This document shows, piece by piece, positions 1 through 42,211 of a stretch of 64,000 bases of DNA (its first letter is position 1; each line of letters opens with the position of its first letter). The notes below the pieces were generated by a model. The model was not told where the DNA came from, searched no databases, and was given only the letters and a program-made list of their open reading frames with translations. Source of the stretch: Lophium mytilinum (Eukaryota); assembly GCA_010093605.1 (NCBI GenBank), contig MU004186.1, positions 1,902,616 to 1,966,615 of the forward strand. Direction: 5' to 3'. A program made the translations under genes and the position numbers.

Positions 1-745
1 GGGACAGAGGAGTGCGGTGGTGACTTCTGTTGCGATGGTGGTCGCGAAGACGATGACGGGGTATTGGAATACCGCGATCCAGGTTCTCTAGATTCGAGAT
101 GTCAGAAAGAATGATGTGGCTGGGTTTAGGAGGAATTTTACCTTAAGCCAGAGAGCGCTGCTCTTACTTCGTTGTGACTTGTTTCGGAGGCTGCTTGGGT
201 TGCCTCGACACCCGATCTCTACGCATAAATCGCCAATTGTTGTAGTTGGAGCTGAGAGCGGATCCGGTATGATATAGTTGACGCAAAGCAGGAAGATTGA
301 GGCAAGGGCGATGGTTTCGCACAGTTTTGCAAATGGCTCTATGTAGGGAGCGGCAGTGTAGGACGCGATACAAGCAAGACCGAAGATGGAGAAAATGGCA
401 GGAATCCAGATGATCCGTATAATCCTGAGGTTCATACATTTAGATCTAGATCTGCATACATAAACAGCTTGAATACTCACAGCTTCTGTTCGGCAGGGTT
501 GGTGTAGTAACGTATATGGAGCCCGGTGAGAAACAACGTGATAAGAATAGTCGCTCCGGTGGTGGCGGCAGCCACGATGAGGATGATGCGTTGGAAGGTG
601 AAACCATCGGAAAACGGTACTTTGCTTGCTGCAGCGACGTGAGTAGGTTACACTTCAAAATTTGCATCATTCTACGAGTCTTACTCGCGAGCTTTGGTAC
701 AATACAGCCTGACTGTGACCGGAGAGATGGGATATGATAGTGCAT
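1..745 (-). CDS. TMEM184/organic solute transporter OST-alpha (DUF300) family membrane protein; multi-exon, 3' end runs off the window
   Basis: Spliced translation gives ...GFTFQRIILIVAAATTGATILITLFLTGLHIRYYTNPAEQKL/IIRIIWIPAIFSIFGLACIASYTAAPYIEPFAKLCETIALASIFLLCVNYI.../RTWIAVFQYPVIVFATTIATEVT, matching the family pattern. GT..AG introns are visible (e.g. 88-141; donor GTGAGT at 480). The start ATG at 745 is inferred. Confidence 0.8.
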
Positions 746-1569
746 GGCGTCGAACAATACACAAAAATTTGGGTAATTTTCACAAGTATTTTACAGGAGA
801 TGTGACGTCGGAAGGGATGAGGATGTAGAGATAAACAAGAACAAGATAGCGGGTTGAGCATCCATCTTATAGGCCTCGGGGTAGCAATAGAGGAACAAGG
901 TTCCTTGCGGCGGCGTGTGGATCCTCATCATTCGACAAGCTACTGCACATTGAAACAGGAGTGATGTCTTGTTCAAGAACAAGACCTGAGGCTGTGGGCG
1001 TTCGGAGCTATTGATGCTGGTGTTGCGGCTCGTGGATTGTAGCCCAAATCATGTGCTCGCAGCGAGGTGCCGGTTTGGGCTTAGGCCATTGTAGCACTAG
1101 GACCACTAGGACTCAATAACGTCCAATAGCCTGAAGGTTGAGGATCTCCGGTACGGCTGTGCTAGCCTCCGCCCCCAAATCCTGGGGCCGACTATCTCGG
1201 CGACTTATGTGTATTTCCCTGATATTCGGCGCGGCTTCGGGTTTCGCGCTGCTCAGCTTCCAGGTTCTTGGAAATGAGACTTTACACTTCCAATCATGAC
1301 CAGTGCCACTGATCGATGCCGCTGCTTCTTTTATCCTTCAATCAGCACGCTAGGGTAGCTATAGTTCAAGCTTATGCAGCCAATTTCCACCTCACGATTG
1401 GCTTGCAACACCGGCTAGTATTGTTCTCGCGCCACTTGACCTTTCTTGGAGCAGGGCTGATACTCAAAAGCGGAAGTCTTTACTGAGGTTCGGTGCAACA
1501 AAGCATCTTAATCTTCCTCACGAGATCACCTGATTATCTCTCACTGGATTGCTGTATGGCCATGCTGTC

Positions 1570-35993: not shown

Positions 35994-37460
35994 AGCACTC
36001 CATACAACATCGTTTGCGTCGCGTAGCATTTGGCATACATCTAAGCTGCGCTCGAGCGTGGAAAGGAGGTTTATTTGAGCGAAGTGATGGTTTGTGATAC
36101 CAAGGGCATTTGAGTTTCGTAGCACTGCACTGTTAGGCGTTTTGGCGAGGTCGTTACCTGGGTTTGGCCTTTTTCGCATTTGGAGGGGAGAGCAGATAGA
36201 TGGAGCATCTAACACAGACATATACGCATTGTGCTCGTAGATGACCACGCATAGCAGTTTCCGTACGTCAAAATAGACTTGGTTGCGTGAGGTAGCAGTG
36301 AGGGTTCCTGGTCTTAGGAACACGAAGCCATGTCTTGCGGATCTGCAGTCGGGCGTATAGCTAGTTCATCTGACGTATACCTGAAGATGGGAGGCCGTAG
36401 TCACGGAAAAGTCGGTGGTTTCGCCTTGATGTAACGTCGTTAACCCAAAAGACGGTCACATGTCTGGCACATCGGTTGCTTACATAACGATTCTATGTCT
36501 TGGCAGTAAAGTCCAAACGCGAATTCGAGGTTTCAACACCTCCAACCAGATAGCTCAACAACAACACCTCGTAACTCAGATCTGAGACCGGGAAGCGATT
36601 TGCCCAGTCAAATAATATTTTTGAGGAAGTTATAGAGTGTTAAACCTCTCGTGTCATTGATATAGCGGTGGGTGTGCAGGACTCCACACTTTTTGTGGCA
36701 CTATTTAGCGTGCCAAGACTACCAAGACTTGCCTATCAGAGACACTTCACGTGATCCTAGCGATGAAACTGACAGCTCCTTGGCCCCGCCGGATCCCCGC
36801 CGAAACAAAATTCAGGGCGCCTATTTCACAGCCACCGAGATCAGGCCTCCGGCACATCGTTATTAATATCCTACTGCTAACCTCTTGGTGCTTAGTGTGC
36901 GATCTGCCGCCGAAGAATCTCAGCATTGTGTGATCACTGCAGACCAGCGACATGGAGACGGTGAGTGTGGAAGGGAGTAGGTCTTACGAGTGGCGAAGAC
37001 GATACAGCAGTCTGATCCAACCCGTTAGAAATAAGGGAAACCATCGAGAGTGATCAAGATGCCATATGTAAGCGTAAGCGGCTTGCAGGTTCGGCGATCT
37101 CTCTGCTACCGCGGAGGTATGCTGGGTGGCGGAGCCTCATGTCGCAGCCACCCTACAGTTATAATTGGGCTCTCGAGGTAGGCGGAGGCATGAGCAAAAG
37201 GTGCCTAACGTAGGATGTCGATCCTTCGAGGCTAAGACTGGCCCTGACAGGAGTGGGAAAGATTAAGGCATAACCACAGAGGATCCTCCTTGTCATCCCA
37301 GTTGTTCTTCATTCTTTCATCTTGCTGTCTCGGATTTCCAGCGATCAGGCTCTCGTTGTAACTGCATATTGATACCATTTCTATCGTTTTGGGAGGAGTA
37401 TGAGCGCACGATAGACCATTTATCACATATCATCACATTCAGCAAACAAGATTCTCCACG

Positions 37461-38372
37461 ATGCGAGCGCTTTCTTCTCTCCTGGTCCTCGGGTCAATAG
37501 TAGGAGTCTGTCTAGGCCAATTCCAGTTTCTCAACCCGGACGGAAACCAAGACGACTTCTCGCAAACCTTCTCCAATGGAGACGTCATCGACATCAAGTG
37601 GAATAAGACATGGAAAGGCGTCGGCGCCGCCCTCAAAACCGCAGACTTGTGGATAACCTGGTTCGACGAGTCCTCCTTCTCCCAACTGCTAGAATGTACG
37701 TTTCCCACACCCACTTCCACAACCCATCGCAAACCCTAATCCTAACCCTCCCCAGCAAACGTCAACTTCAAATCCGACGGCGAACTAAAATGGACCGCCA
37801 ACCTCTCCGACGCAACTCTCAAGCACACCCCCCGCTACGTCTTCCGCTTGAAACCCCACACCAGCCCCCCGCTCTACAGTGACATCCAAAACGAATCCCC
37901 CTCGCGCGGCTTCAACCTCATCCCCTCCACCCAGCCCCTCTCCACCTCCGTTTCCTCATCCTCCCACTCCGCGACCGCGACCTCCTCCGCGACCGCCTCC
38001 ACCTCCGCCTCCACCGCCGCCGCCTCCTCAGACAGCAGCAGCCCGACCCTCTCCAGCGGCGCCATCGCCGGCATAGCAGTCGGCGGCGTCGCCGTCATCG
38101 CCCTTTTCGCTTTCGGAACATGGTTTCTACTTCGATATCGCCGCAACACGGCCGTCGCGAATCCGCAGCGGTATGAAGCGGACAGCGCCCCTGCGCGGAT
38201 CGAGGCGGGCGATACGGCGTACGCGGGGGCGTACAAGCCGCCCGTGTTTGCGGGGACGTATCAACCCCTGCCGCCGGCGCCGGTGGAGGCGGATGGGTAT
38301 GCGGTGGGCCAGCCGGCGGCGGAGTTGTATGGGGACGGGGGTGGGGGAAGTGGGCATTATGGGCAGCGTTGA
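37461..38372 (+). CDS. Type I cell-surface protein (signal peptide, extracellular domain, Ser/Thr/Ala stalk, one TM, short Tyr/Pro tail); Mid2/Wsc-like architecture
   Basis: Signal MRALSSLLVLGSIVGVCLG; intron 37696-37755 (GTACGT..CTAAC..CCAG) joins two ORFs in frame; TM segment LSSGAIAGIAVGGVAVIALFAFGTWFLL followed by RYRR. Confidence 0.85.
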
Positions 38373-38893
38373 GAGGGGTTAATCGCAGTTGGTCGTTTTT
38401 CTTGTGCTTTTTTCTTTTCTTCGGGTTGAAATGCATTTCGTGGCGCTGGGAGCATTTGAGCGTTTTGGCGTTATGGGGATATTGCGTGTTTCGGCATGAA
38501 GATATCAATGAGGCGTATTGGCTGATTGAACGGAAGGGGGTTAGTTGCGTAAAAGACTGCCTAGATGTTATCAATAAAGCAGCAGAGTCAAGTCCAATCC
38601 AGTTTAGCAATCAAGGAATGGAACACGAATGAGACAGTAGTCACAAACTCATCAGTAAAGGTAGACAGCACTCGTTGATTCAGATCAAAGTGGGTTCAAT
38701 TGATCGTCTGACTTGGATATCCGCATCGTGTCCCGCTGCCCAGCAAAAATTCAATCAAGCTCCCCAATATCTCCGCTTCCCACACCCATGTCACTCCCTC
38801 CATACAGCCTCCATCTCAGATGTCGATGTCGTTGTTGAAGGAAAGTGGGAAGGGTCGATGTGGTGGGTTGTGTTGGTAGGTTGGCCGAGTCGT

Positions 38894-39004
38894 TTACATG
38901 ACGACGCACCAGCAGCTCTCGTCGCAGCCGCAGCAGTCACAGCTCTCGCCGCAGGAGGTCTTGATCGGCTTGGGCTTGATGATGGAGGAGACTGAGCCAG
39001 GCAT
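38894..39004 (-). CDS. 36-aa Cys-rich CAAX peptide MPGSVSSIIKPKPIKTSCGESCDCCGCDESCWCVVM (candidate a-factor-like pheromone precursor or prenylated metallothionein-like peptide)
   Basis: ATG in the strong fungal context TTCACAATG; nearly all codons end in C or G; ends CVVM-TAA; 5'-UTR intron 39025-39130 (GTATGT, GCTGAC branch, TTCTAG). It is below the ORF-track length cutoff. Confidence 0.8.
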   Translation of the reverse strand: MPGSVSSIIKPKPIKTSCGESCDCCGCDESCWCVVM

Positions 39005-39878
39005 TGTGAAGGTTTGGTTGAGGTCTAGAAGCGGACAGTCAGCCTCTCAGTTACTAGCTATCGACTCCTCTTATCGACTCCAGCGTGCCCAACGCAAAGC
39101 AACAGAGCAAGAAAGCGGTGTGAGACATACAATGTGTTTGTTCGTAAAGTAGTTAATCGTAGCTTTCGCTGTGCAGTAAAGTGGCTGAAAAGGTCGTGTG
39201 TGTGTATGTATGATCAAGGAAACAAGAAACCTCCTCCTCAGCAAGGGGCCAGCACCCTTATCTACTCCCCCCCTCCCTCCCCAGCCAGCTCCTACCCTCA
39301 GCCCTCCTGCAATGTGCCACCATTACGCATCCCTACTCAGCCGGCCAACCAACCCAACCAGTTAGCCACGTAGCCCATCAGCCCCATTACCCGCCAGCAC
39401 CTTCCCTTCCCTTCTCCGCTCTCCACTTCACTCCCCCCCACCGGGCCCAATCGATACCTCCAATTCGCCCCTTCACCTGCTTCCAGGCAAGCCGCCGTGT
39501 CAGACCCCGACCGCTCACTGGCAACACGAGTGCGCGAGCGCAACGCAGCGTCCCGGTCCCACTAGCACCCCAAACTAGCAAGGCGAAGCCTGCGCAAGCA
39601 ACGATAAGCTTTGCATCCCGGCATTTGATTGGCGGGCCGCGCGATCCAAGCTTTGCTAAGCCCGCCCAAGCTTTGACGGGGCGGGGGGACGGTGCTACGA
39701 GGGTGTGATTACGCGGCAGGGCGGGTAGCAGACAGCCACCGTTACTACAGAGTTGCAGGGTGTGAGGGATTAAAGGTTGTTGTGCCATTCTGCATTGTAC
39801 GGGAATAAAGAGTAAGTAATTATAGAATGCGGTTGGCCTGAGAAGGGATGGGGATGTTCCAGGGGAGCAGAGACAGTA

Positions 39879-40067
39879 CTATGGTATCCGGCGTATCTTT
39901 TGTATGTGGGGACTAAGGCAACGTCAGCAGCAGGGGATTAAAACACAGACCAATACAAGGGTTCTCACCAATCGACTCTTCAGCATTTACCTTACCGCGC
40001 AGCCGTGCGCTTACCGAGATGAAAACGCCACAGTCTCCACATATAAAAGATACGCCGGATACCATAG
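39879..40067. mobile_element. MITE, 189 bp, 36-bp terminal inverted repeats, TA flanks
   Basis: CTATGGTATCCGGCGTATCTTTTGTATGTGGGGACT (39879-39914) matches the reverse complement of 40032-40067 at 34/36 positions; TA at 39877-39878 and 40068-40069. Confidence 0.85.
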
Positions 40068-40069
40068 TA

Positions 40070-41353
40070 TAGTCTCCCCCCCTATACGGGCTGCCCACGT
40101 CTGTGCACATCCGTGCATTAAATATTCTAGCAACCCTGTAAGCTTTATATATATTTCCTTAGCTAGAAATACTTATAGATGCCTAAGCATCTAAAATAAC
40201 AGTTTCTACCCCTAATTACTACCTTACTTATAATAAACGCCTATAGATTATTACTCTCTATAATATAGGCCTTACGCTTAGCTAAATTAAGTAGTAGCTA
40301 GGTATTAAAAAGAGTACTATTTACCGCACGCTTTAAAGCCTTAATGCTATAGGCCCCCTTACACTAATAAAATTAAGAGAACGCCGGCTAATTCTTAATA
40401 TACTAACGCGCCACCGTTTAATTCTCTATGCTATAACTAACACTATATAATAGAGGAAGCCTTAAAGAGTAATAGCTAATAAGCTAGGCATTTAAGTATA
40501 TAATAAGGTACTTAATACCGCCTTTTATAAGGAAGGCTACTACTAGAGAAAGGTAAGAAGAAAGCTTTAGCTTAATTAAAAGTATAAAGATGCCCGGTTA
40601 AAATAGGCCTAAGAGTATCTAGAATAGATAGAAAGTAACTAGAACTAGGTCTACTAGACTAATAAGATATTCTTTTATCTAGATTAGGGGGATTATTATA
40701 TTATAAGAGGGCTAGAAGAGAAGCTTTACCCGGACTACCTTATACTAAAGTTTTAAGGCTATTTACTCTAGATAGTTTAGGGTACCATTTCTTCTAAAGT
40801 AAAGGGCCCCTTAGTATTCTTTAAGAAGAATTAGAGTAGTATTAATAACTAAGTATACTAAGAGAAGATTCTCCCCTATATTCTAGAGTATTAAAAGGGG
40901 TATAAGTAGTATATTCTTAGTAAAGAAAATATACTTCTAATAGAAGATAGGGTACTAGCTTATAAGGCTATTACTATAAGAGAAGAATAGGGGTAGTATA
41001 GCCTATATAAAATATAGTTTTCTACTAATTTACTAGATTTAAACCCTATTAAGAATCTCTAGAATAAGCTAAAGAATGCTATTACTTAAAGGAAGCTAAA
41101 GAATTAAGATAAATTAAGGCAGGTGCTGCAGGAAGAATAGGCTAAGATTAATCTAAATTAGATTTAATTGCTTATATATTTAATAAATAATAGGTGCTAA
41201 GCCGTTATCTTAGCTTAGGGGGGGCATATAAAATGGTAATGTAGTAATTTAGCATTAATTTGTATGTAAGATTGTATGGTAAACTATGCTGGCCCCTGCA
41301 CGGTGCATTGGCCGGCTTACGGACGTGGGCAGCCCGTACAGGGGGGGAGACTG
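40070..41353 (+). mobile_element. Tc1-like (DD34E) DNA transposon, 1284 bp, RIP-inactivated
   Basis: 32-bp TIR (C/T)AGTCTCCCCCCCT(G/A)TACGGGCTGCCCACGTC at both ends; TA flanks at 40068-40069 and 41354-41355. Confidence 0.95.
40196..41239 (+). pseudogene. RIP-degraded Tc1 transposase (348 codons)
   Basis: De-RIPped HTH (LTRDERLQI), WTDE, MEDGAPAH, and SPDLNPIENLW with 34 codons between the second D and the E; C-terminus AVISAQGGHTKW*. Confidence 0.92.
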
Positions 41354-42211
41354 TAATTGGTAGTCAGCCCCAGCAAGACCTGCACGCGGCTTGCGTAATT
41401 GTGCAGAAACTTGATCTTTGGGCCTGGGGGTGGTTATGCACGGCACCTAACGCCGTGACCGTACCTGCTTGCTTTTTTTGCTGGCGGGTTGGAGATCGAG
41501 AGGGAGCTTTGAGACGATCTCGTTTCATACATAGCTATGATGTAGGTGCATGGTATCAACACCGCTTGTTACTGGGTTCTAGACCGCTTTGCTATGCATT
41601 CCGCGGCGCGCTATGCAACCACTCGACACGGCCCAGCCACACACCGGTGAAACACCAAACGCTTCCTTCCTCGGTGATTGAGATCCGCATCCCTGTCCAG
41701 CTGAGAGCCACCGCTAAATCGCTCGATGGCGACTCTTTGTGCTGCAGCGCGCTCAAAGCGTGTGTAAGGCTGAGCTCACCGCTGTCACCTATACGACGTC
41801 CGCGGCATGGTAACTCACAGGCCGTTGTAAACCCTCGTATACACAGGCCGAGGGGATTCCTTCGCCGAACTTTCAAAGGAACACGCAGATGGTGCGAGGC
41901 TGATCCGACGCTCATCTCTGTCTGCCTCACTATAACCCTCGCCGCACTAGCTGCGTGTAACATCAGAGTAGTACTACAAATACGAACATGATTAGAACAG
42001 ACGAGACATTTCAGCAGCAAAAGAATATCATTCTTCTATTGCATATGTATATACCACAACATGCTACCCCAAGATCGCGCCTCGGAATGCAAGTTTCGTG
42101 AACCTCATGACAACGCCTATGCTGCGCTTTCTATCTCCGAATCTAGCAGTGATCAGTGACCATATGATACCTACACAACCCTTTTCACATCTCAACCACA
42201 AGCCTCAGCCC

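Follow-up and report, generated by a model that had tools for sequence, protein, structure and literature searches.

The 64,000-nucleotide (nt) stretch of the Lophium mytilinum genome analyzed here (assembly GCA_010093605.1, contig MU004186.1, positions 1,902,616 to 1,966,615 of the forward strand; hereafter the window, whose own numbering is used throughout) carries on its minus strand a spliced micro-gene for a Cys-rich peptide that ends in a CaaX box (Table 1). A preliminary description made from the letters alone had proposed such a gene, and direct reading of the sequence recovers its open reading frame (ORF): 38894 to 39004 of the minus strand translates as MPGSVSSIIKPKPIKTSCGESCDCCGCDESCWCVVM*, a peptide of 36 amino acids, and the frame appears in an ORF listing made with a minimum of 20 amino acids. 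As had been claimed, all seven Cys residues (positions 18, 22, 24, 25, 27, 31, and 33) lie within the last 19 residues, and the sequence also shows the CGESC/CDESC repeat, a patch that reads KPKPIK, and a start codon in the context CACAATG. The leader holds five Ser or Thr in 17 residues, the peptide contains no Asn, and 33 of the 36 codons, counted by hand, end in C or G against a regional GC content of 50–55%, which bears out the codon bias noted earlier. A DNA pattern for the C terminus, relaxed a little at the two codons that follow the putatively lipidated Cys and allowing at most one mismatch, occurs once in the window and in none of 100 shuffles; by this pattern scan, the micro-gene is present in a single copy in the 64-kb window. 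AlphaFold2 predicts no fold for the peptide (mean predicted local distance difference test score 50.3).

Table 1. Features of the micro-gene and its upstream region in the window (UTR, untranslated region).
Feature	Position	Strand	Basis
Coding sequence, 36 codons plus TAA stop	38894..39004	-	Sequence reading, ORF listing
Acidic Cys-rich core, C18 to C33, CGESCDCCGCDESCWC	38906..38953	-	Alignment conservation
CaaX box CVVM, predicted farnesylation signal	38897..38908	-	Sequence reading and profile matches
3′ UTR; RNA contigs end between 38680 and 38729 (X1 38729, X16 38694, X2 38680)	38680..38893	-	RNA contigs
Exon 2 part of the 5′ UTR, with CACAATG start context	39005..39024	-	Sequence and RNA contigs
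5′ UTR intron, 106 nt: GTATGT (39130)...CTGAC branch-like site...TAG (39025)	39025..39130	-	Exact joint 39024/39131 in X1 contig
Exon 1, minimum extent, 5′ end uncertain	39131..39198	-	Contig of X3 relative starts at match to 39198
Cluster of three CAAAGCTT copies, candidate promoter element	39606..39675	-	Three of six matches in the 64-kb window, within 70 nt

The micro-gene is transcribed and spliced. Of the 17 runs in a run search, X1, X2, X3, and X16 were examined; X4 to X15 and X17 represent small shares. An X1 contig of 989 nt (depth 318.5), at least 99% identical to the window, covers 38729 to 39024 and 39131 to 39700 and then runs on for a further 123 nt. It skips exactly 39025 to 39130, a segment whose ends read CT..AC on the plus strand and GT..AG on the strand of the gene, and thus the 5′ UTR intron of the preliminary description is present both as a canonical GT..AG sequence and as an exact joint in RNA. 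A second X1 contig, again at least 99% identical, corresponds to the convergent neighbor; it has a depth of 86, so that the micro-gene contig is 3.7 times as deep, and it ends at 38661. The splice join and the gap in coverage between the two convergent 3′ ends show X1 to be cDNA of the same organism or of a near-identical strain. Exon 1 measures at least ~70 nt, since the X3 contig begins at the place that matches 39198. The relative in X16 is spliced alike, because the loose end of its contig at 39024 (AATGTGTTTGTTTGTGAAGTAGGC) reads as exon 1 of the window from 39131 onward, with two differences, and the X2 and X3 contigs have a similar join with diverged bases at the junction. Collectively, these data indicate a small two-exon gene whose mRNA of ~0.4 kb has a 5′ UTR intron and would be translated into a 36-amino acid precursor.

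Two further observations concern the 5′ end of this transcript. The X1 contig extends ~690 nt upstream of the exon 1 boundary (39131 to 39823, minus strand), in a stretch that holds other ATGs, while the contig of the X3 relative starts at the match to 39198; the long upstream stretch belongs to an isoform with a long leader or else to an overlapping transcript from upstream that the assembly joined to it. In addition, the intron contains a 24-codon ATG-initiated ORF of its own (MSHTAFLLCCFALGTLESIRGVDS; 39054 to 39128, minus strand). Splicing removes this ORF, and therefore intron retention would place an upstream ORF before the main one.

The first hint that the peptide belongs to a family came from X2, in which seven short contigs match the Cys-rich coding part only and have other flanks. 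A scan of metagenome contigs with a degenerate DNA pattern encoding E-[S/T..]-C-x-C-V-V-M-stop yielded 58 loci (L001 to L058), comprising 29 clearly related ORFs and 29 chance matches. Among these loci are 28 complete ORFs, encoding 19 distinct peptides of 21 to 41 amino acids. Because the pattern demanded the last eight residues, these residues are biased in this set, and variation in the CaaX box was accordingly judged only from matches, independent of the DNA pattern, to an alignment profile that was searched against 1.84 billion representative proteins. The profile search returned 21 matches at E values up to 0.001 (13 at up to 1e-10), 20 of which are members of the family; the remaining match, P0019, is a spurious repeat protein. 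The preliminary description had asked whether the CaaX box is conserved, and it is: 15 of the 20 matches end in such a box, 14 of them with C-[VITA]-V-M (CVVM in eight, CIVM in three, CTVM in two, and CAVM in one) and one with CVVQ, the other five being gene models that extend into further sequence. A natural family member of 58 amino acids, used as a protein query, gave three matches. In the ESM Atlas, one query gave an unnamed Ascomycota cluster at 0.81, which is below the useful range, and a second gave phylum-level taxa.

Members of the family share a common architecture: a leader that is rich in Ser/Thr and carries a K-P motif precedes an acidic C-x3-C-x-C-C-G-x2-E-S-C-x-C core, and the peptide closes with C-[VIT]-V-M. 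Upstream of the residues demanded by the DNA pattern, the conserved sequence comprises the leader MP[AG]S-(S/T-rich)-SI[IV]KP[KSQ]P followed by C-G-E-S-C-[DEG]-C-C-G-C. An alignment of 29 sequences shows no variation at M1, C18, E20, C22, C24, E29, C31, C33, V35, and M36, and at least 90% of the sequences have C25 and G26, so that six Cys residues are fixed at that level; the non-Cys core residues G19, E20, G26, E29, and S30 are also nearly fixed. The C terminus is conserved and the N terminus more variable, with CVVM ending 23 of the 29 sequences, CTVM four, and CIVM two. The members carry five to eight Cys, their net charge is −2 to −5, and in 17 of the 29 the residue immediately before the CaaX Cys is Trp or Tyr. 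Leader composition varies: 20 members have four to seven Ser or Thr in 17 to 22 residues, P0015 has 12 in a leader of 24 residues, and eight members have none to two, among them the five shortest (21 to 30 amino acids), which have none. The shortest of all, L036 and L037, are 21 amino acids long and lack the leader, and L037 (MGCTEDCHCGNFYESCGCVVM) is the most divergent member. A short intron immediately ahead of the start codon also recurs: of 20 loci, 11 have one predicted by a strict script, and in four more, with GTAAG or GTTCG...YAG, it is recognizable by eye; RNA confirmation of this intron comes from the window and its near relatives.

The substitutions within this family reveal selection on the encoded peptide. 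Relatives of 38680 to 39024 occur in the soil metatranscriptomes X16 and X2 and in an organism designated B (X3). Their 3′ UTRs differ from that of the window at 13, 12, and 10 listed places, respectively, and the 111-nt coding sequence differs at one, one, and none; both coding changes (38942 and 38954) are synonymous and fall at the third positions of Ser codons. Across the family, mean pS, for synonymous differences, is 0.73 and mean pN, for nonsynonymous ones, is 0.13 (11 codons outside the search pattern; 153 non-independent pairs). Between the window and distant metagenome loci the coding sequence alone aligns, over 94 to 145 nt at 76 to 84% identity, and none of the window ORFs flanking the micro-gene was matched in the 700-nt flanks of the metagenome loci. 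Purifying selection on the peptide is shown by these frame-following substitutions. The gene is almost certainly real and translated.

All named members of the family belong to the Dothideomycetes, within the Pleosporales, Venturiales, and Botryosphaeriales. The Pleosporales contribute Plenodomus biglobosus, Pyrenophora tritici-repentis, P. teres, P. seminiperda, and Ascochyta lentis, and likewise Alternaria arborescens, A. alternata, A. gaisen, A. tenuissima, A. rosae, Stemphylium lycopersici, and Clathrospora elynae. Outside the Pleosporales, Venturia inaequalis, Phyllosticta citricarpa, and P. citribraziliensis carry the gene, and for these two genera the placement was checked. No member from another class was identified among the matches, many of which are without names, in a protein library in which unannotated genes cannot show. 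The surroundings point to the same class: a neighboring window ORF of 535 amino acids is 68% identical to its counterpart in Lepidopterella palustris (Mytilinidiales) and 64 to 65% identical to those of Pleosporales, and the best named matches of a DnaJ gene beside the metagenome locus L037 are from Dothideomycetes. At L037, the family ORF (704 to 766, minus strand) starts MGC and adjoins the 3′ end of this Ydj1-type DnaJ gene (2 to 304, plus strand), which itself ends in a CaaX box, CASQ; the adjacency of the two is probably a coincidence.

In public annotation, members are labeled hypothetical or are named after a fused neighbor (“gluconate 5-dehydrogenase,” “NAD(P)-binding protein”), and many of the profile matches have false N-terminal extensions. 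P0011, P0021, P0018, and P0007 are annotation errors that conceal the family, and the micro-ORF is fused to downstream sequence in Stemphylium lycopersici, Clathrospora elynae, and Alternaria rosae; by eye, the downstream part in the first two of these resembles a short-chain dehydrogenase. The 39-amino acid peptide of Pyrenophora seminiperda is itself named “gluconate 5-dehydrogenase.” Searches with peptide motifs and public locus tags found no relevant paper, in a library that excludes ~1.7 million PubMed Central articles and everything available by subscription only. None of 20 members of the first alignment matched a Pfam metallothionein model, even at E values up to 10, and a profile search of solved structures (PDB) gave nothing significant (best E value 0.19) and no metallothionein chain at E values up to 10. 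Thus the gene is previously undescribed, with no metallothionein family, solved structure, or paper matching it, and the family is new across the Dothideomycetes, with the window gene as its founding example. The preliminary description had staked its proposal on a spliced transcript, on conservation, and on there being no match to a characterized family; each was tested, and the transcript and the conservation were found and the match was not. Its spliced micro-gene, Cys-rich peptide, and conserved CaaX box therefore stand, and the two functions that it offered, a pheromone or a prenylated metal-binding peptide, are still the best readings. Among the nonsignificant PDB matches was chain 8bwb_A, a disulfide-rich spider peptide with a 16-residue stretch that has the exact Cys spacing of the core, C-x3-C-x-C-C-G-C-D-x2-C-aromatic-C (E value 0.38); by analogy, this Cys spacing can support a disulfide knot.

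Judged from its C-terminal sequence, the peptide is very probably farnesylated. A Met in the X position of the CaaX box directs attachment of a farnesyl group, CVVM is the box of N-Ras, and Neurospora MFA-1 ends in the same four residues. Because C-[VIT]-V-M is conserved in matches that are independent of the search pattern, farnesylation, removal of -aaX, and carboxymethylation are the safest inference. The reading that we favor, tentatively, is that the peptide is the precursor of an exported a-factor-type signal, a lipopeptide pheromone. The precursor would comprise three parts: a Ser/Thr-rich leader ending K-P-K-P, the acidic six-Cys core, and the C-terminal CVVM. Farnesyltransferase would lipidate C33, -VVM would be clipped, and the new C-terminal Cys would be carboxymethylated, as in the general CaaX pathway outlined in excerpts of Srikant et al. 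(bioRxiv 2021.09.28.462209). The leader would then be removed and the farnesylated Cys-rich core exported by a Ste6-type ABC transporter, to act at the Ste3 receptor as the equivalent, in the Dothideomycetes, of the a-factor class or as a signal derived from that class, and the six other Cys might be held by metal or by disulfides.

This reading is favored because the Dothideomycetes keep both Ste3, in single copy (PMC4227064), and Ste6 (PMC6071951), and have no known a-factor; among filamentous ascomycetes, only the Sordariomycetes had yielded one before the Leotiomycete candidate of Wilson et al. (2023; PMC10569646), as far as the excerpted texts of these three papers go, and no published Dothideomycete a-factor was found in the literature searched. 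Among the a-factor criteria in the excerpt of PMC10569646 are an ORF of at most 100 amino acids, a CaaX or CpaX end, a Ser/Thr-rich N terminus, a conserved C terminus, poor annotation, and high expression, all of which are features of this family too; the window peptide has 36 amino acids, the CVVM end, and a Ser/Thr-rich leader. Moreover, the near-fixed non-Cys residues of the core are a better fit to a specific macromolecular partner, such as a receptor, than to generic metal chelation.

The family can be compared with several known systems. The Sordariomycete precursors (Neurospora mfa-1, Sordaria ppg2, and Magnaporthe MF1-1) are also encoded by tiny ORFs with abundant small mRNAs, have a Ser/Thr-rich start of the M-P/S-S-T type and a C-V-[VI]-M box preceded by an aromatic residue, and are usually missed by annotation. 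However, they have a single Cys, a short hydrophobic mature part, a GY motif, and Asn, whereas this family has five to eight Cys, an acidic core, and mostly no Asn. According to the excerpted text of Schmoll et al. (2010; PMC3068285), the precursors of C. globosum and M. grisea start with MPST or MSPST, which the family start MP[AG]S resembles, and that of M. grisea ends YCVIM; the precursor loci have genes for cyanate lyase, EBP2, and a MYND protein as neighbors, whereas those in the window are others. The Leotiomycete candidate, the BCIN_13g03330 family of B. cinerea, is likewise a class-wide small CaaX protein with a Ser/Thr-rich N terminus, the same boxes (CTVM, CVVM, and CIVM), strong conservation within families, and high expression without mating-type dependence, high expression being a property also of the window gene; compared by its description in the excerpts of PMC10569646 only, it differs in its length of 45 to 64 amino acids and in its GY motif, which is present in 87 Leotiomycetes. 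HPP1, the hybrid-type precursor of the Hypocreales (PMC3068285, excerpted), resembles the family in that it is a CaaX pheromone precursor of an atypical kind, with additional Cys and a repeat within it, but it has three (LI)GC(TS)VM copies and two Kex2 sites where this family has one CaaX box. A precursor of the HPP1 hybrid type was rejected on the grounds that dibasic KR, RR, or KK occurs in none of the 29 members and that the CaaX box is single. Plant HIPPs combine metal-binding Cys with a farnesylation box as well, but they are built on an HMA domain, and no such domain was found by Pfam in 20 members.

Several observations weigh against a pheromone. We know of no described a-factor with six extra conserved Cys or with such an acidic core, the known ones being hydrophobic, and the GY motif is absent from all 29 members. 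The core is nearly identical across orders, and partner-recognition pheromones usually diverge. Expression was seen in a culture transcriptome, of unspecified condition, and in soil metatranscriptomes, and not specifically in mating, and the Ste12-type element TGAAACA occurs in none of 19 promoters. At the window, cyanate lyase, EBP2, MYND, and mating-locus genes are all absent among the 27 Pfam-scanned of 61 ORFs of at least 140 amino acids, so that none of the neighbors of the Sordariomycete a-factor loci is seen there, synteny across classes not being expected. Homology to known a-factors is not established, because the 21 profile matches include no named Sordariomycete or Leotiomycete protein. 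In addition, the yeast filter in the excerpts of Srikant et al. required an Asn-X cleavage site 5 to 20 residues before the CaaX Cys; such a site, a yeast-derived criterion, is absent in that range from the window peptide and present in three of the 29 members. The excerpts of PMC10569646 describe the Leotiomycete candidate as similarly conserved and without mating-type-dependent expression, and for those reasons its authors doubted a role in mating. A more specific form of the a-factor reading, in which the family would be a Dothideomycete a-factor of a new chemical type, a farnesylated and methyl-esterified acidic peptide of 16 to 20 residues that is shared almost unchanged across orders and has its six other Cys in a metal-thiolate cluster or in three disulfides, is possible but doubtful. 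The “metallothionein-like” gene MAT1-1-4 of Pyrenopeziza brassicae was considered as a lead only and set aside, as it is a Leotiomycete mating-type (MAT) locus gene and the Pfam-scanned ORFs of the window include no genes of the MAT-locus type.

The Cys content itself suggests another function. In place of a signal, the product could be a membrane-tethered, metallothionein-like peptide, farnesylated and perhaps S-acylated on the cytosolic face of a membrane, in which six thiols and four carboxylates would hold a Cu(I) or Zn/Cd cluster and so buffer metal or pass it on. The core is 37% Cys (7 of 19 residues), spaced as C-x-C, C-C, and C-x3-C, and at least 90% of the 29 sequences keep six of these Cys; the alternation of acidic residues with Cys, which has an analogy in the phytochelatins, suits the binding of soft metals, and the apo peptide lacks a predicted fold, as would be expected if folding depended on metal. 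High transcript abundance outside any known mating setting fits as well, and because L036 and L037 have no leader, core and CaaX box form the minimal unit. Fungal Cu metallothioneins, such as the 26-residue Neurospora protein, are similarly very small, with about one-third Cys, C-x-C motifs, and seven Cys, but they have no CaaX box and no leader, their Cys spacing is different, and no Pfam model of the group or solved structure matches this family. In typical metallothioneins the non-Cys residues are not so conserved, whereas here they are almost as conserved as the Cys, and neither the aromatic residue before the CaaX Cys in 17 of the 29 members nor the conserved leader has an obvious place in such a molecule. 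The literature searched showed no link between CaaX and a fungal metallothionein, and 19 promoters contained no consistent Cu, Zn, or metal-response element (MRE) motif, which is weak evidence either way. Overall, we regard a metal-binding peptide of this kind as somewhat unlikely, though it is the chief competitor of the pheromone reading.

A third proposal shares the lipid anchor and dispenses with the metal, in that C33 would be farnesylated and nearby Cys palmitoylated, giving an anchor of the type found in the hypervariable region of Ras on a micro-protein that would bind one particular membrane protein or regulate it. The C-x-C-a-a-X arrangement places a Cys two residues before the one to be farnesylated, as in the palmitoylated tails of Ras proteins, the N-Ras box is the same, and the near-invariance of the non-Cys residues suggests a specific protein partner. 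However, palmitoylation sites require neither six fixed Cys nor fixed Glu, a net charge of −2 to −5 is unfavorable at the acidic inner leaflet, and, as the flanks of the loci do not align, conserved neighbors hint at no partner. Overall, a multiply lipidated micro-protein is improbable. Least probable by far is that the ORF is untranslated, the conserved element being a noncoding RNA or the ORF a product of chance. The long upstream stretch of the X1 contig with its other ATGs could be read in that way, but the pattern of substitution described above follows the reading frame and is synonymous-only in near relatives, start, stop, and CaaX box are kept across orders while flanks are unalignable, and codon endings are strongly biased toward G or C.

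In filamentous ascomycetes other than the Sordariomycetes, the genes for a-factors have resisted discovery even though receptor and exporter are kept, and a class-wide, highly expressed CaaX micro-gene is a concrete candidate for the a-factor of the Dothideomycetes. This is among the largest of the fungal classes and includes major crop pathogens, in which the sexual cycle is a driver of epidemics and of recombination; an a-factor of the new type would give a class with many crop pathogens a “knotted” lipopeptide signal. If the product is not a pheromone, it would be the first conserved fungal micro-protein found to join a metallothionein-like Cys array to a farnesylation signal, and would represent a new way of placing thiols or metal at a membrane. 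The analysis also exposes a recurrent annotation error, in that the gene is missing, over-extended at its N terminus, or fused to a neighbor in public Dothideomycete genomes.

Upstream of the coding sequence, short elements recur in the family. CAAAGCTTGG is found in four locus groups, in the same orientation and 465 to 670 nt before the ATG, and AAAGCTTGG in five. Two other elements recur at fixed distances across the divergent loci L018, L012, L007, L001, L020, L040, and L036/L037: AGCTGAGCCA lies upstream in five groups, near −500 in four of them and at −219 in L020, and GAGGCGGTGCG lies near −415 in four. CAAAGCTTGG contains CAAAG, the core sequence to which the Neurospora mating-type HMG-box protein binds; this would speak for the pheromone reading but is treated as a promoter lead only.

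The Pfam-identified neighbors in the window are a ClC channel, a GDSL lipase, Pik1, and a UCH/DUSP deubiquitinase. The convergent neighbor (37404 to 38372, plus strand) encodes a Ser/Thr-rich, single-pass membrane protein without a Pfam match; a similar protein occupies the same convergent position at L020, a low-complexity match (E value 0.005) that was not counted as a shared neighbor. Two inverted repeats, nested or adjacent to each other, lie just upstream of the gene. One (39870 to 40076) has 50-nt arms that are 88% complementary and 107 nt apart, and the second (40068 to 41355) has 37-nt arms (92%) around an AT-rich block of 1.2 kb with a GC content of 31 to 41%. Both look like remnants of terminal-inverted-repeat transposons.

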